Source: Bryobacterales bacterium
GTDB lineage: Bacteria > Acidobacteriota > Terriglobia > Bryobacterales > UBA6623
DNA: 64,000 nt
Direction of reading: 5' to 3'
Assembly: GCA_965116065.1 (NCBI GenBank)
Contig: OZ220485.1
Span: 3,112,989-3,176,988 of the forward strand
Notes under the pieces: generated by a model
What the model was told of the DNA's origin: nothing
Seen by the model: the letters and a program-made list of their open reading frames with translations, nothing else
Databases searched by the model: none
Shown: piece by piece, positions 6,695-59,050 of the stretch
Layout of the letters: each line of letters begins with the position of its first letter
How positions within the stretch are numbered: the first letter of the stretch is position 1
Position numbers and translations under genes: made by a program

Positions 6695-7176
6695 CAAGGT
6701 TGAGGTGGAGCGGCTGCTGGCCCTGTGCCGTCGGGGCACGGTCGGCCATCCTGCGCAGGATATCGAGGAACGGTTTGCAGGGCAGCCAGCGCCTGCTCCG
6801 CGCTGAGATGCACGACAGGGATGTGCCGGGGCAATGCCCGGCATTGCCACTGCACTGCACACGTTGGGCGACCCAGGCATCGCTCGCGGGGCCGGTCGGC
6901 GTGGCGCGCTGAAGGGACGACCGGGACCGAAGCCAGCTTGCTGACCAGCCCATCATCGGTGGTGGCGCAGGAGAACTGGGACGAACCGATCGGGACGGCC
7001 GTACCACGGGAGAGAGGCAGCGTGTTCGCAGGAGCGCCCGGCATGATTTCGGGTTCACGATCTTGCCTGGAACTCACATCTCCCGCCAAGCCCTCGACCC
7101 CACCGAAAGCCCTGTATTGCAATGGTTTTCAGGTTACGATGTTCCCATGACCTGCCCCCGAGGTCAGGATGTCTGA
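6695..7176 (-). mobile_element. Miniature element copy B, main part with intact left-end terminal repeat
   Basis: Homology to copy A and to 17247..17690 resumes here and ends with CCGAGGTCAGGATGTCTGA at 7176. Copy B has about 95 bp more internal sequence than copy A. Confidence 0.7.
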
Positions 7177-7401
7177 ATCTACGATGCGCTCCGCCAGGCA
7201 GGTGCCAGCGAGGAACCTGCGTATACTGCAGTGCAGAGGATTTGCGACGTGGCATCTGCAAATCTCATTACCCAGATGTTGGCCAAGATGGACGCCATGA
7301 ACGCGGATATTGCGGCCCTGAACGCCAAACTGAACATGCTGATGTGGATGATCGGAGCCGCTGTTGCGGTGATCGGCCTGATCGTACGGCTGTCGAGTTA
7401 G
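7177..7401 (+). pseudogene. DUF1640-like small coiled-coil/C-terminal-TM protein, 5' end replaced by the miniature-element terminus
   Basis: The frame IYDALRQAGASEEPAYTAVQRICD...LNMLMWMIGAAVAVIGLIVRLSS begins immediately after the in-frame TGA that forms the element end (7174-7176). The first possible start is GTG 7231. This is a paralog of 7606..7854. Confidence 0.5.
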
Positions 7402-16276: not shown

Positions 16277-17242
16277 ATGGATTCGGGGCCGTCCAGGAGA
16301 ATCTGGCTCACTGTCGGGGCGTCCCTGGCCGTTTCCGGCGGATTCGCGATCGTCATCTCCCTCCCCGAAGGCGGACTTCTCCTGTGGTGCGGCGTCGCGA
16401 TGGTGGCGACCGGTTCCCTGGCGCTGCGCGTCAGTCTGAACACGTCAGACGATTCCGATGCATCGGAAACGACGGCCCAGGAGTCTTCGGCACCGCCCGG
16501 GGCAAGGGCATCCATCGAGCCCGAACTGCTTGATGCGGTGCCCCGCAGGGTCGAGATGACTCCCCGCGGGAAACTGGTGGTGGCGGCATGGATGCTGACT
16601 CTCGCTGCCTATGGCACTCTCGCCCAGAAGCACTTCCATCTCCTGCCCCCCATTCCCCAGCAGGACGTCCTTGAAGCCGAGGGCGCCACGTCGACAGCCA
16701 CCGTGCACTCGGTCGAGTCCAGGGAACTCGAGGATGGCCGTGTGCTGTACTTCGTCGGATACAGCTTCACGACCGAGTCTGGTGCTCCGGTGCGCATCAG
16801 TCGCAGCATCCCTGAGCGCATCCAGACAGCCATCTACGAAGGCATGAGGACCGAGGTCGTGTACTTTCCAGGTGGTCCCGAGTTGCACTACCTTCCAGAA
16901 CTGACGTCGCCCGTCTCCACCCGCATCGTGTTCTTCGCTGGCGGCATCCTGTTGGCAGCAGCCGGTTATGCGGAAGCACAACGACGCCTTCACCGGCGTC
17001 TGGTTGTCCGGGGTGTCGCCGTTCCGGGGTTCACGGCCAGTGTCAGGCGCCGGGGCGGCGTGCGTTCGTTCCAAGTGAACTTCGACATCGCCGGCGAGCG
17101 CCGGTCGATCAAGGCCAGCGAGCGCAACCTGCACTTGCGCAATGGCCAGAGTGCGACCGTGCTGTATGATCCCGCGGCAGTCGGCCGCGCGATCGTGTAC
17201 CGTCTTGCCCTGTACCGGGCCGTGGCTGCACATCCCGGCTGA
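16277..17242 (+). CDS. Multi-pass membrane protein with DUF3592-like beta-rich domains
   Basis: The 321-aa ORF has hydrophobic helices at the N-terminus and mid-protein. The segment ATVHSVESRELEDGRVLYFVGYSFTTESG...VVYFPGGP resembles DUF3592 by recall. The stop codon lies 4 nt before miniature element copy C. Confidence 0.6.
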   Translation: MDSGPSRRIWLTVGASLAVSGGFAIVISLPEGGLLLWCGVAMVATGSLALRVSLNTSDDSDASETTAQESSAPPGARASIEPELLDAVPRRVEMTPRGKLVVAAWMLTLAAYGTLAQKHFHLLPPIPQQDVLEAEGATSTATVHSVESRELEDGRVLYFVGYSFTTESGAPVRISRSIPERIQTAIYEGMRTEVVYFPGGPELHYLPELTSPVSTRIVFFAGGILLAAAGYAEAQRRLHRRLVVRGVAVPGFTASVRRRGGVRSFQVNFDIAGERRSIKASERNLHLRNGQSATVLYDPAAVGRAIVYRLALYRAVAAHPG

Positions 17243-17246
17243 AACT

Positions 17247-17690
17247 CAGACATCCTGCCCCGGGGCAGGTCATAGGCCCATCGTAGCCCGAAAACCATTG
17301 CAATACAGGGCTTTGGGTGGGGGCGAGGGCTTGGCGGGAGATGTGAGTTCCAGACAGGATCGTGAACCCGAAATCATGCCGGGCGCTCCGACGAACCCAC
17401 CGCATCTCTCCCGTGGCAAGGCCGTCCCGATCGGGTCGCCCAGTCTGTACAGTGCAGCGGCAACGCAGGACACTGCCCGGCACATCCACATCCCTGTCGT
17501 GCACCTCAGCGCGGATCAGGTGCTGGCTGCCCTGCAAACTGTTCCTCGATATCCCGCGCAGTATCGCCGACCGTGCCGCGACGGCACAGGGCCAGCAGCC
17601 ACCCCGCCCCCACCTTGAGACGCCCTTCACAGCCGACACCATACCGCTGGCACGGGTTCACGATCCTACCCTCGAGGTCAGGATGTCCGA
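17247..17690 (+). mobile_element. Miniature (444-bp) derivative of the IS at 20503..22835 (copy C), same orientation as the full-length element
   Basis: The left terminus is CAGACATCCTG... at 17247 and the right terminus ...CTCGAGGTCAGGATGTCCG lies near 17689. The interior is homologous to copies A and B (reverse-complemented) and to both ends of 20503..22835. Confidence 0.75.
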
Positions 17691-17767
17691 GTCTCGGAAT
17701 CGGCCCGCCGTCAACCTCCAACCCACCCGTCCCGGGAACACCGCCGCGATCCCGCCGTCCATGCCGA

Positions 17768-17799
17768 CTCTGCGCGCCTACACCTCTGCGCGCCTACAC
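17768..17799. repeat. Perfect 16-bp x2 tandem repeat in a C-rich spacer
   Basis: CTCTGCGCGCCTACAC occurs at 17768-17783 and 17784-17799, between miniature element copy C and the 3' end of the caspase gene. Confidence 0.9.
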
Positions 17800-17881
17800 C
17801 CCCCCTCCTCCCTCATCATACCAACCACTCCAACCCTGCCACCCTCTCCCCCCTCCCCATTCCCGCGCACTCCCACCCCTA

Positions 17882-19804
17882 TCACGGCAGCCGTCCCCGA
17901 TACTTCTCCCCCACCTCCCCACGCGAGGCTCCATGCTCCAACAACACCCGCATTGCATCCTCCGCGTCTTTCATCGCCGCCGAGTGCAGCGGCGTCTCGC
18001 CGTCTTTGTCCTTCGCATCCACCGCAGCCCCCGCCCCCAACAGCTCCCGCACCACCCCCTCCGCGTTGCTCCACGCCGCCATGTGCAGCGGCGTCTGGCC
18101 GTACTTGTCCTTCGCATCCACCGCAGCCCCCGCCCCCAACAGCTCCCGTGCCACCTCCTCCGCGTTGTTCCACGCCGCCATGTGCAGCGGCGTCCTGCCG
18201 TCCTTGTCCTTCGCATCCACCGCAGCCCCCGCCCCCAACAGCTCCCGTGCCACCTCCTCCGCGTTGTTCGACGCCGCATCGTGCAGCGGCGTATCGCCGT
18301 ACTTGTCCTTCACATCCACCGCCACCCCCGCCGCCAGCAACTCCCGTGCCACCCCCTCCAAGTTGTTATCCGCCGCCCACTGCAGCCCGGTCTCGCCCTC
18401 GACGGCCCTCGCGTCCGCCAACTCCCGTACCCGCCCCCGCGCCCCCTCCGCATGACGACCCTCCGGATACTCCCGCAAATACCCCATGAAACCCTCCAGC
18501 CTGTTGCCCGCCGTGGCCACCCTCCACGCCTCCTCCTCCCGGTACTGCCCCAGACGCCGCTGCGCCAACTCCACGTATATCCCCCCCGGATACGCCCGCA
18601 CATACGCCGCATAATCCTCCGGATCCCGACTCTCCCTGATCTCCTCCCACAACGCCCGGTCCCCCTCCAGATCCCGCCGCTCCGGATCCGACGAACCGCC
18701 CGCGGAACCGGCGCTCCCTCCTCCCACCGACGACTCCCCCGCACCACCCCCCAGCGACTCCAACCGCCTCCGTGCGAAATCCGCGAACTCGCCCTCCGGA
18801 TATCTCCGCAGATAATCCTCGTAGTCCTCCCCTCTCCCGCCCCTCTCGGCCGACTCCCAGTACCTCAATTCCGTCTGTCTATCCACCACATCCATCCCGG
18901 ACACCGAATCACTAGTTCCCACCCCGCTGGCCGGCCCCTCCGGTTCCCCCGCCAGATAGTACTTCTCCCGTAACGAACTGTACTCGTGCGGAACCTGTGC
19001 CTCCTCCGTCGTCGCCGCCACCTGCTTGCGCACCTCCTGAAACACGTCCCGCAGATCCTGCTGCCGCAGCAGCTGTTCCTTCAGGGCCGCCGTGTACGGG
19101 CTGTTCCGCTGCCCCTCTTCTCCGTCGTCCGCCAGCTTCCCGGCCGCCGCCGCATACGCCACCAGCGTCTCCCTGCCCAGTCGACTCGTTTGCAGTGCAC
19201 CGAAACCGCCGTTGCTCACGCTGCCCGACCGCGTGCGCTTCATCCTCCTGATCGCCGGCAGATTCCGGCAGGCATCCAGGATCACCAGGTGCAGTCCGTC
19301 CCCGGACATGCTCCCCAGCACGTCCTCCCGCAACTGCAGTCCGTCATGCATCAGATCCGTGTCCCGGGACAGCTTCGCATCCACCGGCAGCAGGTAGTTC
19401 ACACCGTCCATCTCCAGACCATGCCCCGCGTAGAAGATCAGCCCTATCCCCGCCTTCTCGCTCCGCTCCGCAAACCCCTTCAGTGCCGACCGGAACTCCT
19501 CATGCGACGCGTCCTCCAACTTCGTCACACGGAAACCCAGTCCCTCCAGCACCTCCGCGATGTCTCTCGCATCGTTGACGGGGTTCGACAACACACCGAT
19601 GTGCTCATAGGCGTTGTTGCCCACCACCAGCGCCACCCGCTTCTCTCCTGCACCACCAGATCCCCCGGATCCTCGCTGGACCGGCTGCCCCCCCTCTTGC
19701 ACCACCGTTCCCGGTTGCCTCGAAAACTCCTCCGGCTGCGTGCAGGCCCCGATCACCACCACCAGCACCGCCAACGCCACGCGCAACCCACCCCTCAACA
19801 CCAT
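17882..19804 (-). CDS. Caspase-like (peptidase C14) lipoprotein with three YxxYPxG-type helical repeats and about five C-terminal ankyrin repeats
   Basis: ORF 17882..20200. I prefer ATG 19804 (MVLRGGLRVALAVLVVVIGAC, lipobox-like). The caspase motifs are ALVVGNNAY, FYAGHGLE (catalytic His) and VILDACRN (catalytic Cys). The helical repeats are YLRRYPEGEFADFARRRL, YVRAYPGGIYVELAQRRL and YLREYPEGRHAEGARGRV. The ankyrin units read DKxGxTPLHxAAxxNAEEVARELLGAGAAVDAK. Confidence 0.85.
   Translation of the reverse strand: MVLRGGLRVALAVLVVVIGACTQPEEFSRQPGTVVQEGGQPVQRGSGGSGGAGEKRVALVVGNNAYEHIGVLSNPVNDARDIAEVLEGLGFRVTKLEDASHEEFRSALKGFAERSEKAGIGLIFYAGHGLEMDGVNYLLPVDAKLSRDTDLMHDGLQLREDVLGSMSGDGLHLVILDACRNLPAIRRMKRTRSGSVSNGGFGALQTSRLGRETLVAYAAAAGKLADDGEEGQRNSPYTAALKEQLLRQQDLRDVFQEVRKQVAATTEEAQVPHEYSSLREKYYLAGEPEGPASGVGTSDSVSGMDVVDRQTELRYWESAERGGRGEDYEDYLRRYPEGEFADFARRRLESLGGGAGESSVGGGSAGSAGGSSDPERRDLEGDRALWEEIRESRDPEDYAAYVRAYPGGIYVELAQRRLGQYREEEAWRVATAGNRLEGFMGYLREYPEGRHAEGARGRVRELADARAVEGETGLQWAADNNLEGVARELLAAGVAVDVKDKYGDTPLHDAASNNAEEVARELLGAGAAVDAKDKDGRTPLHMAAWNNAEEVARELLGAGAAVDAKDKYGQTPLHMAAWSNAEGVVRELLGAGAAVDAKDKDGETPLHSAAMKDAEDAMRVLLEHGASRGEVGEKYRGRLP
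17975..18400 (-). repeat. Tandem 99-bp (33-codon) ankyrin-encoding DNA repeats, about 4 units of high identity
   Basis: The landmark GTCCTTC(G/A)CATCCACC recurs at 18008, 18107, 18206 and 18305, exactly 99 bp apart. The middle units differ at only a handful of positions. Confidence 0.85.
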
Positions 19805-20022
19805 CCCGCTCCGGGCCGGTCTCCGGCACTGCCCGCTCCAACCCCCTGTCACGGCACCGCCACGCCTGCTTCGCTCTTCCATCACTTCACCCGCTCCTTG
19901 ATCCAGCCGATGCACGGCGCCACTCGCGTGTACACCCCGTAGGCCTCCGCCTCTCCCGAGGAAACAACGACACCGCATCCTAGCCATCATACCCCCACCA
20001 CCACTCCACCTCCCTCCAACCA

Positions 20023-20036
20023 CCCCCCCCCCCCCC
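20023..20036. repeat. Homopolymeric C14 tract (G14 on the caspase coding strand) inside a C-rich block
   Basis: I counted 14 consecutive C directly from the sequence. The tract lies ~220 bp upstream of the preferred caspase start, and the surrounding 19985-20040 is ACCCCCACCACCACTCCACCTCCCTCCAACC-rich. Confidence 0.9.
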
Positions 20037-20239
20037 GCGTGCTCCGCTCCGCGCCCAGCGCCCCTCCGACAACCCACGCCCACATCACCCGTCGGAAACC
20101 CACAGCCGCGGCCCCGCGCCCACCACGCCTCGCGATGCCCTCCGACTCTCCGGTGTACCAATGTCTGACCCGACCGATCTCTCCCCGACGGTTCCACCAC
20201 TGCACCACCAACCCCGACCAGACGTATCCCGGCCTAACC

Positions 20240-20502
20240 GGTGGAGTCGTGCATCACCTCACGCTTCGGGACGGCCGCATCAAAGCACATCTGCTCGGAC
20301 CGCAGAATCCGTTCCACAAGTCCCGGCCCGACTCCAACATACCCTTCGCTGTGGACGTGGATGCCAACCACGATGCGGTGCTGGTGACCGTGCAGGCGAG
20401 AGGTTCCTGCTGCAACGAGGCCAGTACAGCCCCTGGATCAAGGTGCGGTTCGACATGGCGTCGTCGCTCGTGGGTGTCGCGGGCATCTGCCGCATGTTCC
20501 TT
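20240..20502 (+). pseudogene. Internal fragment of an alkaline-phosphatase/nucleotide-pyrophosphatase-superfamily gene, frameshifted and truncated by the IS
   Basis: Two frames together read GGVVHHLTLRDGRIKAHLLGPQNPF...IPFAVDVDANHDAVLVTVQ and then ERFLLQRGQYSPWIKVRFDM...VAGICRMFLQ. This resembles the central region of type I phosphodiesterase-family proteins by recall. The frame runs into the IS terminus at 20503. Confidence 0.4.
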
Positions 20503-22835
20503 CAGACATCCTGACCTCGGAAGGCTGGTCATAAGCCCGCCATAGGCTGAATCCCATTGTAATACACGACTTTCGGTGGCGTGGGGAGGCTTGACAGTAA
20601 ATATGGATTTCAGTCAGGATAGTGATACCGGAAACACCCATGAACACCCTGCCACTCACCCCCGGTGCGGCCGTACCGATCGGACAGTCCTGTTCCTCCC
20701 TCACCACTACCGAGGACGGGCTGATGATCTACTTCGCGCACATGGACCCCTTCGATTTTCACGACGCCGAGGATCGGGGAGCGCTGCTGCTGCGGGCGGC
20801 GCGACTGGCGGAAAACGGGGTGCGGCGGGCGGACCTGCAGGCCGCCTTCGGTCTCGGTCGTGCGACCTTGCAGCGGGCGGTGACCCGCTTGCGCCAGGAG
20901 GGGGAAGCGAGTTTCCAGCAGGTGCGTCCAGGGCGCCGGTCTCGCGTGCTGGTGGGTGCCCGGCAGGCGGCGGCGACCCGGCGGCTGGCGCAGGGGCTGA
21001 GCGGAGCGGAAGTGGCCCGGCGGCTGGGGGTGAAAGTCGGGACGGTGAATGCGAATCGGCGGCAGGGGCGCATCGGGCCGGCGAGTGGAGAGGCGCTGGC
21101 CACGACCGCCGGGAATACTGAGGAAGTGGCCGATCCGGATGATGTCATGACGGAACCGGAGGGTGCGAAGGACGGGGCGGAGGCCCCTACGGCCAGCGCC
21201 CGGACGTGTTGGACCGCAGCGCGCCGATGGGCCGGGGTGCCCGGGATCGTGCCGGACGGGTGGCCGCCTCGACGGGTCCGCTGACCGCCATGCAGCCGCG
21301 CTTTCCCGAACGCCTCTCGGCGGTGGTCGGCGGCGGCGTCCTGGCCGCCCTGCCGATGCTGCTGCGCAAGGGGCTGCTCAAGCGCGCCGCCGAGTTCCTG
21401 GAACTGCCCAAGGGGTACTACGGGTTGACCAGCATGCTGCTGTTGCTGAGCTTCCTGTTGCTGGCGCGGGTGCGCAACGCTGAAGCGCTGCGCCATCAGG
21501 CCCCGGGAGAATGGGGGCTCTGCTGGGGCTGGACCGCTGTCCGGAGGTGAAGACCCTGCGGGCCAAGGTGCGGGCACTGGCCGACGATGCACAGCAGGTC
21601 CGGGCCTGGCTGGATGCGCTGGCGCAGGACTGGCTGGCGGACGCTGCGGAGGTGGCGGCCACCCTGGCGGTGGACGGGCACGTCAAGGTCTACACCGGTC
21701 GCAAGGGACGCTTGCCGAAGCACTTCGTGGCGCGGCAGAAACTCTGCCTGCCGGCGACGACCAGCTACTGGGTCAACGCGCTGGGCGGGCTGCCGCTGCT
21801 GTGCCTGCACAAGGATCTGGACCCGCGTCTAACGCAGGCGCTGGAACAGGACATCCTCTCGGCGCTGGAGCGGTTGGGCCACAGGGCGTGGACCTGACCA
21901 CCGACACGGAGGCCGAGCCGGCCCTGACGCTGGTCTTCGACCGGGAAGGCTGGAGTCCGGCCCTGTTCCGGCGGCTCGCCCGCCGGGGCGTCGCCGTGCT
22001 GACCTGGCACAAGAACTTCCGGGGTGCCGACTGGCCGGAGGCCGACTTCCGGACCGCCAGGCTGCCCCTGCACGGACCCGGGAGCACGCGCACGCTCGAG
22101 GTGCGCCTGGCCGAGCAGCGGGTGCGCCTGCCGCAAGGTCCCGAGGTGCGCCAGATCCGCCGGCTGCTGGACGATGGTCGGCAACTCGCCCTGATCACCA
22201 CCAACTTCTCCCTGTCCCGCGAGCAGGCCGCCGGCGCGCTGTTCTCGCGCTGGTCGCAGGAGAACTTCTTCAAGTACATGCGGGAAGAGTTCCGACTCGA
22301 CAGCCTGCCGGTACAGGGTCTGGCCGCCCACGACCCGCAGGCCCGGGTCGTCAATCCCGCCTGGCGGGAGCAGGACCGCGAACTCCGCCGGCTGCGCAGC
22401 CAACTCGGCACCCTGCGCAATCGCCAGGCCGCCCTGCTGCGCGGCACGCCCTCCGCGAGTGCCCGTCAGCGCGCCGAGCAGACCCGCCTCGAGAGCGAGG
22501 CGCTGGTCGCCCGCTGTGACGAGGTGCAGCGGCAATGCGGGGAACTGCCCCGGCCGCGAGAGACTGTTGCTCGATATCCTGCGCATGATCGCCTACCGCG
22601 CCGAGACGCGCATGATGGCCGCCGTGGCGGCGGCCCAAGGCCAGCAGCCCCGGCCCCGCCCGCCCCTCAAGGCGCTCTTCCAGTCCGACGCCGACATCCT
22701 GCCGGGGCCCGAACAGGGCATCCTGCGGGTGCGGATCCTCGGCACCTCCCTGCGCCTGGTCTACGAACTCCCTCCCAACCCCTCCCTCAACCTCGCCTCG
22801 GGCTCACGTTCTTAACCCCGAGGTCAGGATCTCTG
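20503..22835 (+). mobile_element. Full-length (2333-bp) insertion sequence of an IS4-like/unclassified DDE family, the parent type of miniature copies A-C
   Basis: The terminal inverted repeats are CAGACATCCTGACCTCGG (20503) and CCGAGGTCAGGATCTCTG (ending 22835). The transposase reading frame spans the interior. Confidence 0.8.
20622..22815 (+). pseudogene. DDE transposase broken by at least four frameshifts
   Basis: The coding signal hops across ORFs 20622..21284, 21206..21550, 21511..21897, 21801..22889 and 22459..22815 (frames 0,2,1,0,1). It contains an HTH-like N-terminus, VDGHVKVYTG, LVFDREGWS, FSRWSQENFFKYMREEF and DILRMIAYRAETRMM. Confidence 0.75.
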
Positions 22836-22851
22836 AACCTACGGCCGCGGC

Positions 22852-51417: not shown

Positions 51418-54400
51418 TCACAGGGAGTCGAACTGCACTTCGTTGCTCTTGACACCATCGACGGCAATCTTGAGCGTGTGCGTCCCGGCCGCCAGATCGT
51501 CCGGCAGCGCGATCACCACTTCGTAGACACCAGCCTCGAACACTGCCAGTGCGCTGGACCTCACATCGACAGACCGGTCGTCCACCCAGGCTGTCGTCAC
51601 ACCGGTCACCAGGTTCGGCGGCAGGGCCTGGCCGGAACGGCCAGTTGTCGCGGCCGGCGTCACGGATCCGAGTCCCGTGGCGTAGGCATACAGGTCGTCG
51701 CCGGCCATCGGCAGCTTACCGCTGCCAGCCTGGGACAAGACGCCCGTCCTCGGAGCAGCCCCGACCCGGTCCGCAAACAGGCCTGGCTGGACGGGACTGA
51801 TCTGCACGGCGGCAAACTCGCTTCTCCCGTACGGAGTCTTGACGACGATATCGGTCGAGCCAGCAGGTACGCCGAACGGAATCTGAAACGTCACCTCACC
51901 GGGCGCCACCGACAACAGTGGTGCACCCGCTCCTCCAACCTGGACCTGGGTACCTCCAAGCCGCCTAGGAAGTGCTAGATTCCCGAACACGAGCAGCGTC
52001 GTCGCCGATTTCGTCTCTGCCGCCAGTCCAGCACCCCGGATCGTTGCCAGGCTGCCGGGCGCGAAACCACGACCAGCGGAAGGGGCCTCCCCACTAGCGG
52101 CATTGACGATTCCGGAGGCAACCATCCAGGGTTGCTGCTCCGCAACGGAGGCTGTCGTCAGGACAAAGGTGGATGGCTCCCCCTTCAGTTCCGCTTTCAG
52201 CACTTGGGTTCCCGCCCGATCCCCGAGCGGCCATTCGACCGTGCCTCGGCCGCTGAAATCCGTCACGACACTCGGAATCTCGATGCGCTCGGAGGTACTC
52301 GCGGAAAATGCCAACTCGACTCCGCTGTACGGAACATGGTTCTCGTCGAGTACGCGATACTGCACAGGTTCGGTCACGGCGGTTCCAGCGATTCCGTACA
52401 CGCCTGAGGACTGCGACAACAGCTTCAATCCGCTCAAGCCTTCCCTGACCTTCAGTCTGGTGGCCGCAGTATCATAACCGGGCTCGGCAGCCCGTGCGGT
52501 GAGCGTCGTCACCCCGGCCTCCAACCCGGAAAGCGAGAATTCCGCGAACAGATCTCCAGCCGGGATCACCACGGAATTCGGTACGGTTGCGATGGCGTCC
52601 CGCAGATCAAGCAACACCGTCAGATCGGTGTCACGAGCCTCGGAGATGATGACGCGAGCGGTCCCGCTGGATCCCTGGATCAGGCCCCCCGCCGGAAAGG
52701 TCGACAGATGGAGCATCCGAACGAGTTCGGTTGCCGTGGTGGCGGCATCCCCGAATTGCACTCGCGCGTATGCGCGCCAGTTTCCACGGAGCTGATTGAG
52801 CCGTCGGATCGACTCCTGGCCCGGCGACGCTGCATCGTCAACGAGAAGAAGAAATGCGTAACGGAACTGCCTTTGCGAGACCGTCGAATCCGGACGGCGC
52901 TCTCCGGCGGCTGCAATGATGTCCTCGAGCCGAACTTCCTTGCGAACACCGTCAAACCAGACATCGGGTTCGGGGGACCTGGCGGCGTTTCCGAAGTGCA
53001 CCCCTCCCTTCGCGTCCTGCACAAGGAAGGTTGCCGGCACCTCGCTCGGGGCAACCAACCCCATGAGGTACTTGTCGAGCTGGCTGTAGCCCTGCGAGGA
53101 AGCGGTCGTCTGGAACCGCGGCGAAGCGTCCGGTCCGTGGTCCTTGATTGCATTGCCCTCGAGTACTGATGCGTCGGAATTGAAGTAGAAGCTCCAGTGG
53201 GAGGACTGCCTTCCCAGCAGATCCTTGGAATCCAGTCCCGACTCCGGGTCTTTCCATGTCGCATACGCGAGGAAGCGGTGGCCCAGTTCATGGGCGAGGA
53301 CGGTCAGCAGCGACGAGTTGTCAGGCAGTGTACTGATGCGAGCAAGTGGACTGGCCGGATAGCTGGAAGTCGCCCCCATGTTGACGAATGCAGCGAGCCT
53401 CCTGGGGGAGCCGAAGTACTCCCCGGCGTCAATGATGGAATCGCCGATACCCTCCACATAGTTCCGGATCGGCCAGGCATGAGCCAGGGAAGCCCTGCTG
53501 GCCGGTAGGCTAAGATCATTGAAGAGAATTAGGGTGTCGTAGGCATCCTCGTGGTGCCTGTAGAACTCCTGCACGATCGCAAACTCATCCATGCCCTCTT
53601 TGTCGGAGAACACTTCCGCGATGATCGCGCCGGCGGGGACCGTCTCCGGAGCCGTGTCGCTCCAGTTCACGTAAACCGCATCTCGGTCCACCGGCCCGGG
53701 AAAGATCCCCACGACACCATGGGGACTATCCAGGCTTCCATAGCGGAACTCGATGCTGCCATCGGACTTCAGTGTCATCTGAAACGTCTGGCGGCTCCCG
53801 AGCCCGGTATCCTGCCACAACGGAATGTCGTACCAGGTGACGGTCACGCTGCTGCCTTCCACGATGGTCGAGACCTGACCTCCCTGGCTGGGATCCAGAT
53901 CCTGGAAGAACGGGGCTATGCGTGGGGGGCCTCCGACCGCACGAGAATAGTTCCGTTCCCGTCGACTCGCTTCCGGGATCACGAACGTGAAATTCCCGTC
54001 TGAATGCACGAAACCGCGGTCATAATTCTCCTCGTAGTACGGAAACGCGAACGGAAACTCGACGACCGCGAAATCGTCATCGTCCATGGGGATCGGAATT
54101 CCGGTCGGCTCGACCGCCATTCCAGCCGACAACGCACTTCCCTGCACCGTGAATCCAGCGGGGCCCGGCTTGATCGTGACCATTCGACCGGACATGTCGA
54201 CCTGATTGGGAGCACGAAGCAATGCCGGCGCCGCTTCGATCAGGGCGATGTCACCGGACTTGATCGGGCGCGGTGAATCGATCTCCAATGTGCGCGGCGA
54301 CTCCGGGGGGAGTGGAAACCGCTGCCAGTCCTCGTACTTCGTCGCTACCTTGGTGTTCTTCTCGGGGGCGGTTCCGTGCTCCAGGTGGAGCCGCTGCTGG

Positions 54401-54573
54401 TGCAGGAAGAGAACCTCTTGCGGGCTGCGAGAAGTTCCACATACGGCGATGGGCCCTTCGTGGTCGGGAGCGGCCCACACTGGCTGCGAGACCAACGCTG
54501 CCAGTGCAGTCATCCCCAACAGGGCGCCGCGCGGAAATCGGGACTCCATGGTGAACTTGCCTAATTGTCGCAT
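51418..54573 (-). CDS. Large secreted HExxH zinc-metalloprotease-like protein with C-terminal Ig-like repeats of the TIGR03437 type
   Basis: ORF 51418..54687, with a probable start at ATG 54573 or 54549 (signal ALLGMTALAALVSQPVWA). It contains LTVLAHELGHRFLAY. The C-terminal repeats include GSLATIRGAGL, VQVGGAGAPLLSVAPGEVTFQIPFGVPAGSTDIVV and PVQPGLFA. Confidence 0.8.
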   Translation of the reverse strand: MRQLGKFTMESRFPRGALLGMTALAALVSQPVWAAPDHEGPIAVCGTSRSPQEVLFLHQQRLHLEHGTAPEKNTKVATKYEDWQRFPLPPESPRTLEIDSPRPIKSGDIALIEAAPALLRAPNQVDMSGRMVTIKPGPAGFTVQGSALSAGMAVEPTGIPIPMDDDDFAVVEFPFAFPYYEENYDRGFVHSDGNFTFVIPEASRRERNYSRAVGGPPRIAPFFQDLDPSQGGQVSTIVEGSSVTVTWYDIPLWQDTGLGSRQTFQMTLKSDGSIEFRYGSLDSPHGVVGIFPGPVDRDAVYVNWSDTAPETVPAGAIIAEVFSDKEGMDEFAIVQEFYRHHEDAYDTLILFNDLSLPASRASLAHAWPIRNYVEGIGDSIIDAGEYFGSPRRLAAFVNMGATSSYPASPLARISTLPDNSSLLTVLAHELGHRFLAYATWKDPESGLDSKDLLGRQSSHWSFYFNSDASVLEGNAIKDHGPDASPRFQTTASSQGYSQLDKYLMGLVAPSEVPATFLVQDAKGGVHFGNAARSPEPDVWFDGVRKEVRLEDIIAAAGERRPDSTVSQRQFRYAFLLLVDDAASPGQESIRRLNQLRGNWRAYARVQFGDAATTATELVRMLHLSTFPAGGLIQGSSGTARVIISEARDTDLTVLLDLRDAIATVPNSVVIPAGDLFAEFSLSGLEAGVTTLTARAAEPGYDTAATRLKVREGLSGLKLLSQSSGVYGIAGTAVTEPVQYRVLDENHVPYSGVELAFSASTSERIEIPSVVTDFSGRGTVEWPLGDRAGTQVLKAELKGEPSTFVLTTASVAEQQPWMVASGIVNAASGEAPSAGRGFAPGSLATIRGAGLAAETKSATTLLVFGNLALPRRLGGTQVQVGGAGAPLLSVAPGEVTFQIPFGVPAGSTDIVVKTPYGRSEFAAVQISPVQPGLFADRVGAAPRTGVLSQAGSGKLPMAGDDLYAYATGLGSVTPAATTGRSGQALPPNLVTGVTTAWVDDRSVDVRSSALAVFEAGVYEVVIALPDDLAAGTHTLKIAVDGVKSNEVQFDSL

Positions 54574-55517
54574 TGTAACGGAGAGACGGATGATCGGTTC
54601 GGCCAACCGGAGCCAGCGCCCATGGTTTGCTTCGGGCTCTGGCCGATTGTAAGGGCCGCACGAACACAGATCGGGGATACGCCCCACCTGTCTTCCGTTG
54701 CTAGCGAGTCACTGCGACATGGTGCTGGCTAGGCTCGGATGTTGTGCAACCCTTCAGCGGTTGCTGTGGCGTATTGCATGCAGGTGAGTGCCACAGCACG
54801 GTAGCTGGCTCAGCGTGACCGCGCGAGAACGGGGTGGCCGAAGCAGGTCATGCCTGCGGGGCCGTCGGAGCGGGGACCCGTAGGAGTTGCGGGTAGACGT
54901 GGTGAGGTCGTCGTCGAATGTCCATGCGCGGCTGCGTGGCGGCGCAGGACGCGGGAGAGTTGGCGATGCCATTGCAACTGCATCTCCATCGACCCGACGA
55001 CCCCCACTTGACGGATCACCAACGCGTTGTATCTCGGTCACGGCACGAAGTTCGTCCAGCACCCGATCGCTCCGACACAACAGGAGAGGCAGCCGAAGAC
55101 CCGCATGTAGGCTATGAGGCCCATCGGACAACCTCCCATGCGCACGTTCGCATGTTGAGTCTCCAGCACGTAACCGGTCATGCGCCGACGCGTTGCTCCC
55201 GGACGGCAAATCTGCGCGCGTCTTCGTGGTTGCGGTACGACCACCGCCACTGGAACAGCGGAACTCTGCCCGTACCACCGATACACTCCGGAGGCGTGGA
55301 AGCCCCCCGCACACGAGATGTCCGCGGCAGTCCGACAACGGGAAGCGACTTCGATCCAGCCATTCGCCCTCGGCAATCCGGAAGTCTGCCTCTCTTCCCC
55401 GCACGCCATGAAGGTTGCTCCTGCACTCCGCAGAACGGAAACATCTCGACGCCCACAGTGGATGGTTACACGGCCCTCCTAGAGATCGAGTACGGAACAT
55501 TCAACACCTCCGGACGG

Positions 55518-57569
55518 GTAAACGTTCGAGTGGGCAGTGGAAGGCAGGCAGTGAGGAGGAGCGCCGGAGGCTGGCCAGCCGCTGCGGGCTGAGGGGTGGG
55601 CGGCCCACAGCGTCCTTGGCCGGGCCACCCGAGCGGCGGGCAGGTCGCCGGGGTCAGCCGGGCCGGAGCAGCGCCTGGCGGCGGTCCGGGGGCATGCCCC
55701 ACGGCAGCCACTCCTGCGGCTCCGGCACGGTCGCGCCCGGCCCCTGCCGGGCGCACTCGCCCAGGAAGGCCTCCAGCCAGCGCTCCAGATCGATGCCGGC
55801 CATGTCGAGCGTGCTGCACACCGACAGCAGCAGGCCCTGCAACTCCGCCCCGGTCGCACTGTGCGAACCGTGGCTGAGCTGGCGCCCGATCACGACCGGG
55901 CGCAGGGCCCGCTCGACACGGTTGTTGTCCATAGGCACGCACGGCTGCTGCACGCAGACCGACAGGCCCGTGCGATAGCGCAGCAGCGAAGTCAACGGTC
56001 CCAGGCGCGGGTCGCCCGCAACCGGGGCGCTCGCCGCCACGCTCTGCTGCTCGCTTTCGACGTACGCGAAGAACGCACTCATCGCGGTGGCGAACTGCTC
56101 CTGCAGCGCCTGCCACCGCGCCGACTGGTGCTCACCGTCCCGCTCGGGCTGCCAGTGCCGGTGCCGCTCGCGGTGCAGCCGGTACAACTCCCCGATGCGC
56201 CGCACGATTCCCTCCGCCCAGGTCCGCCAGGGCGGATGACGGTCGGCCAGGCGCACGAAATCGCGCCGGGCGTGGGCCCAGCAGATGGCCAACTCCAACT
56301 GGCCGGCGTGGTCCCGCGCCAGCTTGTCGTAGGCCGCATAGCGATCGCACACCAGCACCGCCCGCCCGCTCTGTCCCAGCGGCCCGAACAGGACCTTCGC
56401 TGCGGCCGCGCTGCGCGCCGGATCGACCCGGAAGCGCACCGCCTCGGACGTCAGGCAGGCCCACAGCCAGCAGCGCGGATTGTGCCCCTGCTCGCCCCGC
56501 GCCTGCACCCTCCACGACGTCTCGTCCCCATGTACCAGCAGCGCCTGCCGTTGCTGCACCCCGATGGCCTGCTCCAGCGGTGCGAACCAGTGCACGAAAT
56601 CCTGCTGATGCCCCAGCAGACTGCTCGCCGGCAGCGCCAGCCCCCGCTCGGCCCACTCCCGCTCGAAGGCCCGCACCGGCCGGCGTTGCCAGTACACCTG
56701 CAGCAGGAACTCCACCCACACGCTCAGACCGTAGCAGGTTCCCCGGAACAGCGTCGGCGGCAACCCCGCCTGCACCGTGGGCGCCTGCTGGCCGCGGGCC
56801 TGCGCGCACTCGCAGGCCGCCCGATAGCGGGGCCGCCGGATGCGCCGTCGGTAGCTGCGCACCTCCACCTCGACCCGCTCGCTGACCGCCACCCCGTGCC
56901 GCTGGAAGGGCCGCCCGCAGTCCCCGCACACCCGCCTCTCCGCCGGCAGGTCCCGCTCCTCGGTCCGCTCCTCCAACTCGGGCCGGGCCACCCGCGGATG
57001 GGCTTTCGCTCCCGGTTGCCCGCCCCGCGCCCGCCGGCCCGACCGCCCCGCCACCGCATCCGCCTCGCCCGCCTCTGGCTCCGGCGCCCGCTTCTCACTC
57101 CTCGCACCAAAGGCCGCCCGCAGCAGATCGGCCCGATTCGGCGGCTGTCCGGCCGCCGCCTGCCGCCACTCCGCCACCTGCTGCTGCAGCGCCTCCCGCT
57201 CCTGCTCCCCGACCACCGCCTGCCGCTGCAGTGCCGCGCACTCGGCCTGCGTCTGCACCAACTTCTTCCGCATCACACGGTGCTGCGCCTGCTCGGCCCG
57301 CAACCGCTCCCGCAGCCGCTCCCCGCGTTCCTTCGCCCGACCGTGCTGACTCTTCCAGTACCCCGCCTGCCGCTTCCACTCCCACCTCTCCGCCGACCGC
57401 TTCCGACACTCCCGCTCTCCTCCGCACCGCTCCACCGACTGCCTCTGCTCCGCCACCTGCCTGCGCCCGCACTGAAAACATATCATCCTTCCTGTGTTCT
57501 GTGCAACTCCTCGCCCTCCTTGCCGTCACCTGGCCCCGTCCTAGCCCCACTGCCCGCTCGAACGTTTAC
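55518..57569 (-). mobile_element. IS66-family insertion sequence, single-ORF type, 2052 bp
   Basis: The terminal inverted repeats are GTAAACGTTCGAGTGGGCAGTGG (from 55518) and CCACTGCCCGCTCGAACGTTTAC (ending 57569), with one mismatch. They are flanked by the perfect 8-bp direct repeat CCGGACGG (55510-55517 and 57570-57577). Confidence 0.9.
55654..57486 (-). CDS. IS66-family transposase (TnpC-like); no tnpA or tnpB present
   Basis: The 610-aa ORF has an N-terminal CFQCG zinc finger and a coiled coil. It also contains CGDCGRPF, HGDETSWRV, CDRYAAYDKL, CWAHARRDF and PMDNNRVERALRP. Confidence 0.9.
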   Translation of the reverse strand: MICFQCGRRQVAEQRQSVERCGGERECRKRSAERWEWKRQAGYWKSQHGRAKERGERLRERLRAEQAQHRVMRKKLVQTQAECAALQRQAVVGEQEREALQQQVAEWRQAAAGQPPNRADLLRAAFGARSEKRAPEPEAGEADAVAGRSGRRARGGQPGAKAHPRVARPELEERTEERDLPAERRVCGDCGRPFQRHGVAVSERVEVEVRSYRRRIRRPRYRAACECAQARGQQAPTVQAGLPPTLFRGTCYGLSVWVEFLLQVYWQRRPVRAFEREWAERGLALPASSLLGHQQDFVHWFAPLEQAIGVQQRQALLVHGDETSWRVQARGEQGHNPRCWLWACLTSEAVRFRVDPARSAAAAKVLFGPLGQSGRAVLVCDRYAAYDKLARDHAGQLELAICWAHARRDFVRLADRHPPWRTWAEGIVRRIGELYRLHRERHRHWQPERDGEHQSARWQALQEQFATAMSAFFAYVESEQQSVAASAPVAGDPRLGPLTSLLRYRTGLSVCVQQPCVPMDNNRVERALRPVVIGRQLSHGSHSATGAELQGLLLSVCSTLDMAGIDLERWLEAFLGECARQGPGATVPEPQEWLPWGMPPDRRQALLRPG

Positions 57570-57730: not shown

Positions 57731-59050
57731 TCACTTTACCATCCATCCGTTTTTCTTGTTCAATCTCCTGAGACCCGACAGTGTGTATATGTTGCTTTTG
57801 GCACGGTTACACGGGCCACAGAGCAAAATGCGATTCGAGATATGATTCAGCCCACCATCCGCCCGAGGCGTGTTGTGGTCGAGCTGCAGATAGCGCGAGT
57901 CATCGAACATTCTGTCACAACCTTGACATTTGGAGCCGTACTGATCTAATAAGAACTCGTACATATCAGATCGGCTCATTCGCTGCGAATCCGGTTCCCT
58001 GATGCGTTCACGTACTTGAAGAAAGGCCACAGTATTCGTGTCATTATCAGTGCGAATCGGCGGAATATTCTGGTAATGTACGTCGCCAAACGCCAGCATT
58101 TCTCCGCTGGTTCCATCCGCTGAAAGTCCCTCTTTTCGCAGTCGATCGAGAACCACCTCGTGTGCCCGATTCCAAATATCGATTCCAACCCATTGACGGC
58201 CTAGCCGCTCTGCGGCCACACAAGTCGTAGCACATCCGGCGAACGGGTCAAGCACGATGTCACCTTGGTTGCTGGAAGCCTTGATGATGCGCTCGTACAG
58301 GGCTATTGGTTTCTGCGTAGGGTAGCTCGTCGACTCATGTTGATTCCCTCGCAAGGCTGGGATATCCCAGTAGTCTCGCATGCCCACCATGGTGTAGGCA
58401 CCGATTTCGTCTTCGAGAATATTCACGTTCTTGAATCCGTATCGATGAGACAGATAGGACTTTTCGTGCAATTGATTGAATTGGTAGCGGTTCGATTTCG
58501 AATAAAACAACAATAAATCGTGCTTTCGACTGAACCAGCGTGTGCTTGTTCCGCCAGTCTTGTAACACCATACGATCTCGTTTCGGAACTGTTTACGCCC
58601 GAAAACTGCATCCATCAATTGCTTCAAATAGTGACTTGCAGTAGGGTCACAGTGCATGTATATCGAACCTGTTGGCTTTAGAATCCGTCGCATTTCCAGC
58701 AATCTGACTGCCATGAAGCAAAGAAACGCACCCATGTCGTCACCGTAGCTTGAACGGGATCCATTGACTACATTCATGACGTTCGGATAGTCATCCGTGA
58801 TCTGGTCTACCCAATTCTGGTGAACATCACGATCCCACGACCAGCGATCCTGAAACCGCGCACCTGCCGCAAGGCTATCGGGTGTGGCATGAAAATCGCG
58901 CCCTTTGTTGAATGGTGGATCGGTAGCGATAAGGTCCACAGATTCACTGCACATCCCGCGGAGAAATTTCAGATTGTCTCCATGAAACAGCGTGCGGTTT
59001 TCCCAATTGGAACCACCTGATGTACGTGTGTCTTTGCTTGGTTTGGCCAC
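57731..59050 (-). CDS. Beta-class N6A/N4C DNA amino-methyltransferase fused to a C-terminal HNH nuclease domain
   Basis: The 439-aa ORF has a GTG start. Motif IV (VDLIATDPPF) precedes motif I (IVLDPFAGCATT), which is the beta-class order. The C-terminal ~80 aa read CQGCDRMFDDSRYLQLDHNTPRADGGLNHISNRILLCGPCNRAKSN (CxxC...DH-N...N...CxxC-N HNH pattern). The gene is ~42-43% GC in three hand-counted lines, against ~67% in the flanking peptidase gene. Confidence 0.9.
   Translation of the reverse strand: MAKPSKDTRTSGGSNWENRTLFHGDNLKFLRGMCSESVDLIATDPPFNKGRDFHATPDSLAAGARFQDRWSWDRDVHQNWVDQITDDYPNVMNVVNGSRSSYGDDMGAFLCFMAVRLLEMRRILKPTGSIYMHCDPTASHYLKQLMDAVFGRKQFRNEIVWCYKTGGTSTRWFSRKHDLLLFYSKSNRYQFNQLHEKSYLSHRYGFKNVNILEDEIGAYTMVGMRDYWDIPALRGNQHESTSYPTQKPIALYERIIKASSNQGDIVLDPFAGCATTCVAAERLGRQWVGIDIWNRAHEVVLDRLRKEGLSADGTSGEMLAFGDVHYQNIPPIRTDNDTNTVAFLQVRERIREPDSQRMSRSDMYEFLLDQYGSKCQGCDRMFDDSRYLQLDHNTPRADGGLNHISNRILLCGPCNRAKSNIYTLSGLRRLNKKNGWMVK

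Follow-up and report, generated by a model that had tools for sequence, protein, structure and literature searches.

A MALT1-like caspase homologue with ankyrin repeats, probably exported and transposon-borne, in a Bryobacterales genome

The gene examined here encodes a caspase homologue with ankyrin repeats and lies on the reverse strand of a 64,000-nucleotide stretch of a Bryobacterales genome (GenBank assembly GCA_965116065.1, contig OZ220485.1, positions 3,112,989 to 3,176,988), the whole of which is referred to below as the window. We consider it probable that the gene specifies an exported, probably lipid-anchored protease of clan CD that resembles the paracaspase MALT1 and carries an ankyrin array, and that the copy in the window is a transposon-borne orphan. 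The protein would be anchored through a lipobox cysteine, from which a flexible tether would lead to a C14 domain with its catalytic residues intact and a predicted preference for cleavage after Arg or Lys, then to three three-helix repeats and a flexibly linked ankyrin array. Acting in the periplasm or at the outer membrane, this array would capture a partner or substrate protein and present it to the protease, and the most likely outcome would be Arg/Lys-directed cleavage of the bound partner. Genes of the family appear normally to close an operon with the order DUF4384 lipoprotein, DUF4384 protein, OmpA-like peptidoglycan binder, in some cases a further DUF4384 protein and a secreted trypsin-like zymogen, and finally caspase-X, X being a variable C-terminal module. 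The window copy would have come within a 5.6-kb patch bounded by an insertion sequence (IS) and a miniature inverted-repeat transposable element (MITE), together with a 24-codon trypsin stub, the rest of the operon having been lost.

Domain architecture and likeness to MALT1

The gene is held by an open reading frame (ORF) of 17882..20200 (-) in the ORF listing of the window, and its coordinates are collected with those of the other features in Table 1. Translation from ATG 19804 gave a product that opens with MVLRGGLRVALAVLVVVIGAC and is identical to a database gene model, P0001, carried on a 5.79-Mb contig. The product matched the Pfam profile Peptidase_C14 (PF00656) over its entire length (profile positions 1-233 of 233, E 5.8e-36, 124.8 bits against a cut-off of 21.4), and this domain was predicted by AlphaFold2 (AF2) to adopt the caspase/hemoglobinase alpha/beta fold with a predicted local distance difference test score (pLDDT) above 90. 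The motifs YAGHG, which holds His128, and LDACRN, which holds Cys179, aligned with YAGHG and LDMCRK of the MALT1 paracaspase. The acidic residues of the domain are Asp78, Asp177 and Asp227; the first two were invariant in 120 homologues, and Asp227 was conserved, as were His128 and Cys179, in at least 90% of them. The C14 core with its His/Cys dyad, first noted in the initial annotation from the letters alone, is confirmed by the full-profile match, the alignment with MALT1 and this conservation.

Two further parts of the architecture had been noted in the same way, namely three repeats of the YxxYPxGxxAxxAxxRL type and about five ankyrin repeats, and both were recovered, the former as three helices each and the latter as five repeats matching Pfam Ank and Ank_2. 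A low-complexity Gly/Ser linker sits between helical repeats 1 and 2, and disordered linkers were predicted in the AF2 model at residues 293-305 and 354-372. The helical repeats showed a weak, sub-threshold match to the TPR hairpins of Pfam YfiO/BamD (E 0.03), a match that rose above threshold in the homologues P0015 (E 3e-7) and P0016 (E 2e-8). The DNA coding for the ankyrin part is a 99-bp tandem array (4.1 copies, 89% matches), and its product gave DARPin fold matches in Foldseek with a template modelling (TM) score of about 0.9. The closest homologue, P0002, has only about two ankyrin repeats as against five in the window protein, and the number of repeats therefore changes quickly.

When the protease domain alone was compared with solved structures, the MALT1 paracaspase was the best sequence match (E 9e-14). 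Foldseek analysis of the full-length model gave 3v4o_A (MALT1) as the best fold match of the protease domain (TM 0.81, 26% identity), and with a sub-model the 31 best matches were all MALT1, followed by caspases-11, -4, -3 and -7 and CED-3. None of the 50 best matches of the sub-model was described as a metacaspase; the active-site motif here is DACRN. These comparisons establish the domain architecture, the catalytic dyad and the similarity to MALT1. The protein is most similar to a paracaspase-type C14 protease, without the death and Ig-like domains that define metazoan paracaspases: Pfam gave Peptidase_C14 and Ank families only.

Aligned with Asp78 and Asp177 are the Asp residues of the MALT1 segments 'PLVDV' and 'LLDMCRK', which we take to be the S1-pocket residues D365 and D462; Glu500, the third S1 residue of MALT1, may correspond to Asp227. 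Cleavage after Arg or Lys is predicted for the window protease because the two conserved acidic S1 residues align with those of MALT1, which has a strict requirement for Arg at P1 and is activated by dimerisation (PMC3304489). Orthocaspases too are described as cleaving after basic residues (PMC6426788). Members of the family also have, behind the catalytic Cys (residues 180-202), a loop that is rich in Arg and folded with less confidence.

Table 1. Features of the caspase-ankyrin gene and of the patch around it (window coordinates)
Feature	Position	Strand	Details
Caspase-helical-ankyrin coding sequence	17882..19804	-	ATG 19804, 640 aa; alternative start ATG 19882 / GTG 19885
Signal peptide, lipobox-like VIGAC (Cys21)	19742..19804	-	pattern-based only
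Peptidase_C14 (MALT1-like) domain	18956..19642	-	residues 55-283; His128 codon 19421-19423, Cys179 codon 19268-19270
Three helical repeats of about 41 aa	18416..18874	-	residues 311-351, 381-421, 423-463; each three-helix (AF2, pLDDT >90)
Helical repeats singly	18752-18874, 18542-18664, 18416-18538	-	W..[IA]..S....D[YF]..Y[LV]..YP.G..A..A..R[LV]
Five ankyrin repeats	17912..18397	-	residues 470-631; Pfam Ank_2 E 2.4e-57, Ank E 7.8e-36
3'-end relic of trypsin-like (S1) gene	19882..19956	-	19956-19885 = 24 codons, GEAEAYGVYTRVAPCIGWIKERVK followed by stop
Whole 5.6-kb inserted patch	17222..22845 (about)		between convergent stops of DUF3592 (17242) and POTRA (22852) genes
Degraded IS, Transposase_29 (PF21804)	20501..22837	+	20-nt terminal inverted repeats 20501-20520 and 22818-22837
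MITE-like internally deleted derivative of same IS	17245..17691		same terminal repeats; keeps transposase 3'-end fragment
Phosphodiest-family gene fragment, frame-broken	20129..20517	+	about aa 181-320 of L001 homologue; cut by IS end

Export signal, family and operon of the relatives

The product of the start at 19804 has Arg4, a hydrophobic-region peak of 3.67 and VIGAC with Cys21, which fits a permissive lipoprotein pattern at classical length, and a 33-residue Gly/Gln-rich tether separates Cys21 from the protease domain. The start at 19804, adopted in the initial annotation, is plausible but is not the sole candidate, since the gene models of the closest homologues use an in-frame upstream start (ATG 19882 or GTG 19885) that adds 26-27 residues (MEERSRRGGAVTGGWSGQCRRPARSG). 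P0002 has this extension unchanged, P0003 and P0006 have it in recognisable form, and their gene models begin there. Both choices retain the same hydrophobic segment and Cys, so that the signal, which an upstream start had been thought liable to remove, is present either way. Within the survey of 120, an N-terminal hydrophobic peak directly before the caspase domain was found in all but one of the family members (119/120). Only in P0001-P0006, the six closest paralogues, is this peak followed by a lipobox-like Cys. On these features the window protein is probably lipidated.

The relatives share a common build of signal peptide, caspase, one or more helical repeats and a variable binding module, the C-terminal modules being interchangeable among homologues (Ank, FGE-sulfatase, Sel1, PG_binding_1 and PDZ). 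C14 and Ank are combined in at least 30 of the best 120 clusters at 90% identity. A full-length query of a library of 1.84 billion representatives returned, among its best 150 matches, nearly all giant ankyrin proteins. A survey of prokaryotic caspase homologues by Asplund-Samuelsson et al. in 2012 had listed fusions to FGE-sulfatase, Sel1 and PG-binding modules and had read N-terminal helices as probable signal peptides (PMC3501461). To judge from their sequences, the proteins gathered here are bacterial caspase homologues of a large, exported family that is uncharacterised and was seen here mainly in Acidobacteriota genomes. An envelope-anchored protease whose ankyrin array selects a protein target, as first suggested for the window gene, is thus made plausible by the export signals and by the swappable C-terminal modules; capture by the ankyrins is our inference only.

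Three loci from three samples (L080, L081 and L082) share the gene order DUF4384 - DUF4384 - OmpA-like - DUF4384 - trypsin - caspase-X, with Ank as X in the first two loci and FGE-sulfatase in the third. The order in L081 is interrupted by a second trypsin gene and a caspase-only gene, and in both L080 and L081 a small hydrophobic protein follows caspase-X. The operon proteins of these three loci were then compared by tblastn with 79 further loci, and the cassette was found upstream of caspase genes in about 20 loci. It was complete in L007, L008, L010, L011, L017 and L018, and more distantly in L040. A version lacking trypsin, with two to three DUF4384 genes and the OmpA-like gene directly upstream on the same strand, was found in L004, L006, L009, L015 and L016, and also in L019, L025, L047 and L057; L005 gave an OmpA match only. 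This trypsin-less group includes caspase-helical-Ank loci of Vicinamibacterales (L004, L006, L016 and L019). Seven contig sizes were common to the best 120 caspase matches and the best 120 trypsin matches. All of the cassette proteins begin with signal-like sequences, one DUF4384 protein having LAGGC, and the OmpA-like protein matches peptidoglycan-binding anchors. DUF4384 is uncharacterised; frequent fusion to protease domains has been reported for it (bioRxiv 10.1101/2022.08.17.504292). No paper on a DUF4384-OmpA-trypsin-caspase operon was found in the literature on caspase-ankyrin proteins, Vicinamibacter caspases or DUF4384.

Many bacterial caspase homologues belong to conflict or cell-death systems, and it was in these terms that the gene had first been framed. 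It would then code for a cytoplasmic caspase, whether gasdermin-activating, EACC1/CATRA-like or CRISPR-associated, whose ankyrins sense an invader. Beyond the general precedent of homologues of this kind, such a role could draw on an NCBIfam match to caspase_w_EACC1 (NF047832; E 3e-12) and on weak matches to the PADLOC models 'caspase' and 'Ankyrin', but the former reached 46.4 bits against a cut-off of 140, and PADLOC called no defence system, returning generic Ank and weak caspase matches for the window protein and only a generic OmpA/MotB-like match for the operon proteins. The family carries export signals almost throughout, and the neighbours of the relatives are exported DUF4384, OmpA-like and trypsin proteins rather than NTPases, gasdermins or CRISPR genes, none of which was seen in the window or in the loci for which genes were listed. 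The cell-death framing is largely refuted by these results and we consider it very improbable.

We regard it as exceedingly unlikely that the protein is an effector aimed at eukaryotes in which the ankyrins serve as the eukaryote-like domain, by analogy with the Dot/Icm Ank effectors of Legionella. The NCBIfam matches to T4SS_AnkY, AnkH and AnkG that would suggest this span the ankyrin repeats only and all remain far under their cut-offs, the best of them scoring 144 bits against a cut-off of 600. Moreover, the signal is of the Sec/lipoprotein type, not set in a Dot/Icm context, and the nearest named relatives are metagenome-assembled genomes of Acidobacteriota of soil and wastewater type.

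The constant association with DUF4384 proteins and an OmpA-like peptidoglycan binder suggests a fixed assembly, to which the caspase homologue could be attached via its repeats as a mainly non-degradative envelope component, either a scaffold or a processing or transpeptidase-type enzyme. Other clan CD enzymes found outside the cytoplasm do act as processing enzymes, which gives this idea some precedent among exported proteins, and catalytically dead paralogues persist in arrays. It is nevertheless improbable in our view. At least 90% of members keep the dyad and the acidic pocket, the C-terminal binding modules are diverse, which speaks for varied targets, and no DUF4384/OmpA assembly lies near the window copy. 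A targeted, catalytically competent protease, as proposed at the outset, remains the reading that we prefer.

The mobile patch and the state of the window copy

In a syntenic relative, L083, whose PriA is 82% identical to that of the window, the order NHL/thioredoxin - AMP-binding - POTRA - DUF3592 - ... - GDSL - PriA is kept. Relatives named Acidobacteria have a PriA 56-57% identical to that of the window, and the assignment of the host was based on them. The stop codons of the POTRA and DUF3592 genes are 28 bp apart in L083 versus 5.6 kb in the window, where the patch takes the place of about 45 bp of the L083 sequence. Because L083 lacks the patch at this conserved locus, the segment 17222-22845 is an insertion. 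Within it, the caspase gene sits between the MITE (17245-17691) and the IS (20501-22837), elements that share as terminal inverted repeat the 20-nt sequence TTCAGACATCCTGACCTCGG, which occurs six times in the window versus 0 expected. The transposase of the IS is broken into at least five frame segments by at least four frameshifts and is 86-92% identical to its homologue. Four copies or remnants of this Transposase_29 IS lie within 23 kb (1507-1943, about 6778-7177, 17245-17691 and 20501-22837), and two of them (1507-1943 and 17245-17691) are MITE-like deletion derivatives of about 440 bp.

A 2.85-kb block of the patch (window 20089-17244), made of upstream spacer, trypsin relic, caspase gene and MITE, is 82-95% identical to the locus L001, where the genomic context differs, and it ends exactly at the outer terminus of the MITE. 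L001 also has the IS in intact form, accompanied by a 3-bp duplication (GGA), and the corresponding site of the window is empty; simple insertion of an IS beside the gene was rejected, the IS of the window being inverted and elsewhere. A 1.15-kb direct duplication of DUF1501/Phosphodiest sequence in L001 (5981-7127 and 16545-17691, 96% identity) brackets a 9.4-kb segment with the IS, a caspase-Ank gene, the MITE and a DDE_Tnp_1/DruA element, as though the same block had been mobilised a second time in a different way. A planctomycetal character of L001, suggested by its PSCyt1, PSD1 and DUF1501 genes, was not relied on, because related trypsin and caspase genes are in Vicinamibacterales.

Directly upstream of the caspase gene, the sequence GEAEAYGVYTRVAPCIGWIKERVK is the canonical C-terminus of chymotrypsin-fold S1 proteases. 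A stop codon precedes this trypsin relic, hence the 24 surviving codons, and its TGA overlaps the in-frame ATG 19882 of the caspase gene. The relic shares 79-87% identity with the ends of trypsin-like genes on the contig sampled by L001, L002 and L003. The junction GTGAAGTGATGGAAGAG is identical in the window and in these three loci, and it forms the link between intact trypsin genes and caspase genes in L002 and L003. L003 and L002 (ENA ERZ24894574 ctg6297l) hold an array of about 30 kb, all on one strand, in which at least eight caspase or caspase-Ank genes alternate with at least seven trypsin-like genes and with DUF4384 genes; several of the gene pairs are joined by 4-nt stop/start overlaps. 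At 2508-4286 of L002 a 592-aa trypsin-caspase fusion has its Ser195, His and Cys motifs all replaced (GFGGSP, YAGYG and DAAGN), and it looks, by sequence, like a double pseudo-protease kept within the array. In another relative, P0011, the catalytic Cys is changed to Ser.

The insertion of the patch, the trypsin relic and the conservation of the operon are thus matters of observation. Apart from the relic, the cassette of DUF4384, OmpA-like and trypsin genes gave no tblastn match in the window at E 1e-6. In its caspase and helical-repeat core, the window protein is 37-75% identical to members of the operon. The description of the gene as a singleton without partners accordingly holds for the window but misses its history, in that this is a displaced copy with a trypsin relic whose relatives stand in a multi-gene operon.

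Compared with its 82.5%-identical homologue, the caspase ORF has no frameshift, and relative to L001 it has only in-frame insertions and deletions, in contrast to the adjacent transposase. His128, Cys179, Asp78 and Asp177 are all kept. Divergence along the gene is mosaic, with hardly any difference in the N-terminal 81 codons, a synonymous divergence (dS) of 0.46 in the caspase domain and one of about 0.1-0.14 in the rest, a pattern that points to recombination among paralogues. The ratio of nonsynonymous to synonymous divergence (dN/dS) is 0.74 likewise between the array paralogues P0003 and P0004, which suggests that the family as such evolves fast. We infer from the intact frame and retained active-site residues that the window copy may be active at present.

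A number of points weigh against the proposal of a functional, lipid-anchored protease with a substrate-capturing array. The orientation of the ankyrins relative to the protease is not predicted (the full-length AF2 model has a predicted TM score of 0.51), and the alignments to MALT1 end at the catalytic Cys, so that the pairing of Glu500 with Asp227 lies outside the aligned part. The start is ambiguous, the longer form placing the Cys at about residue 47-48, beyond the usual lipoprotein range, and the Gly at -2 of the lipobox is atypical. No experimental study of any member of the exported family was found in the literature searched. Measured against the closest homologue, the caspase domain has a dN/dS of 0.74, the helical repeats one of 1.13 and the ankyrin part one of 0.85, values that relaxed constraint could produce. 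The sequence upstream of the gene showed no sigma-70-like promoter, and the operon that presumably drove its transcription is gone. Finally, none of the best 120 homologues of the partner trypsin comes from the genome of the window, so that the protein may be without a trypsin partner.

Some of these points could also mean that the gene in the window is decaying as a passenger: transposition would have severed it from its operon and partner, it would now be neither expressed nor useful, and its open frame would be a mere remnant. The truncation of the trypsin gene to 24 codons, the Phosphodiest fragment and frameshifted transposase adjoining the gene, the lack of an upstream promoter-like site and the dN/dS of 0.74-1.13 all agree with decay, and inactivated members of the family do exist (P0011 and the trypsin-caspase fusion). 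An open frame might itself mislead, as high-GC DNA yields long chance ORFs, and spurious antisense ORFs of 466 aa overlap the gene in the ORF listing. Set against this, however, the frame is intact over 1.9 kb next to a transposase with its frameshifts, the dyad and the two aligned acidic residues are retained, and the ratio between P0003 and P0004 led us to read high dN/dS as a family trait and therefore not as decay of the window copy. Decay is in our judgement unlikely, and we continue to treat the gene as an intact, mobilised member of the family.

Other features of the gene and its surroundings were also recorded. A 14-G homopolymer (read on the - strand) at 20023..20036, about 140 nt upstream of ATG 19882, corresponds to 9 G at the homologous position of L001 and could be a hypermutable tract or a length error of assembly or sequencing. 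Just 3' of the caspase stop codon, a perfect 16-bp tandem duplication (CTCTGCGCGCCTACAC, 2.1 copies) occupies 17768-17800. The GC skew of the + strand, -0.40 at 18001-20000, is strong compared with the rest of the window; the caspase-Ank gene accounts for this, its coding strand being G-rich with many codons for Gly, Glu, Ala and Arg. An Rfam scan found no RNA families in the window. Further away, an IS66-family transposase (55654-57486, -) lies beside a DNA methylase-HNH fusion (57731-59050, -), and GC content falls to 0.55 at 58-60 kb; the segment 55654-59050 is probably another mobile or foreign one. An ORF of 1089 aa at 51418-54687 (-) has no Pfam match at E 1e-5.

A possible protease cascade and comparison with known systems

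The partner trypsins carry a conserved activation site, [KR]-R-x-V-S-R↓I-V-G-G, in which, across 105 homologues, Arg occupies P1 in 98, Ser occupies P2 in 73 and Val occupies P3 in 78. Asp189 is present in 95 of 103 members of the wider partner-trypsin subfamily; for the partner trypsins of L002 and L003 it was rejected, residue 189 being Gly there. LVSR is the tetrapeptide that MALT1 prefers (PMC3304489), and the P3-P1 residues VSR of the trypsin site equal that part of it. Since VSR matches LVSR, and given the Arg-rich loop of the caspase (residues 180-202), an extracytoplasmic two-protease cascade in Acidobacteriota is conceivable, in which caspase-X would activate the co-encoded trypsin zymogen, or the reverse. 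An Arg-specific caspase, targeted by its variable C-terminal module, would cut the zymogen at R-x-V-S-R↓IVGG, the cascade being seated on a peptidoglycan-bound DUF4384/OmpA-like scaffold, and the window gene would represent a solo module mobilised out of it. We put this forward as a speculative and rather doubtful proposal.

If the two proteases do act in sequence, the operon would be a bacterial counterpart of the extracellular zymogen cascades of eukaryotes and would provide a context for DUF4384. Bacterial caspase homologues have mostly been discussed as cytoplasmic cell-death or defence proteases; the family described here is exported, diversifies fast and is closest to MALT1. The gene in the window is real and intact but an orphan, and complete operons (for example L080, L081 and L008) are better suited to functional work. 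The operon to which the window copy points is a more valuable lead than the copy itself.

With respect to its mobility, the patch is composite-transposon-like without being a textbook case. As in IS-flanked composite transposons, passenger DNA lies between two related elements that share their 20-nt terminal repeats, and a relative has the empty site. However, one flank is only MITE-like here, the transposase is frameshifted, and no target-site duplication was seen at the outer ends of the patch, where the flanks are AAC and ACC.

The defence caspases (gasdermin-associated, EACC1/CATRA and Csx29) resemble the window protein in being clan CD proteases fused or linked to repeat modules. They are cytoplasmic and linked to NTPases, gasdermins or CRISPR genes, whereas the window family is exported and linked to DUF4384, OmpA-like and trypsin proteins. 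The catalogue of bacterial metacaspase-like proteins and orthocaspases (PMC3501461) likewise holds proteins in which C14 is followed by interaction repeats, and the relatives of the window protein carry the alternative modules listed there; it differs in that no word beginning with 'ank' occurs in its main text, and the motif of the window protein is caspase/paracaspase-like. The closest comparison is with MALT1 (MEROPS C14B; PDB 3V4O and 3UO8), which is the best match in both sequence and fold and shares YAGHG and LD-x-C-R. Unlike the cytosolic MALT1, the window protein is predicted to be exported and probably lipidated, and its C-terminal part is made of helical repeats and ankyrin repeats.

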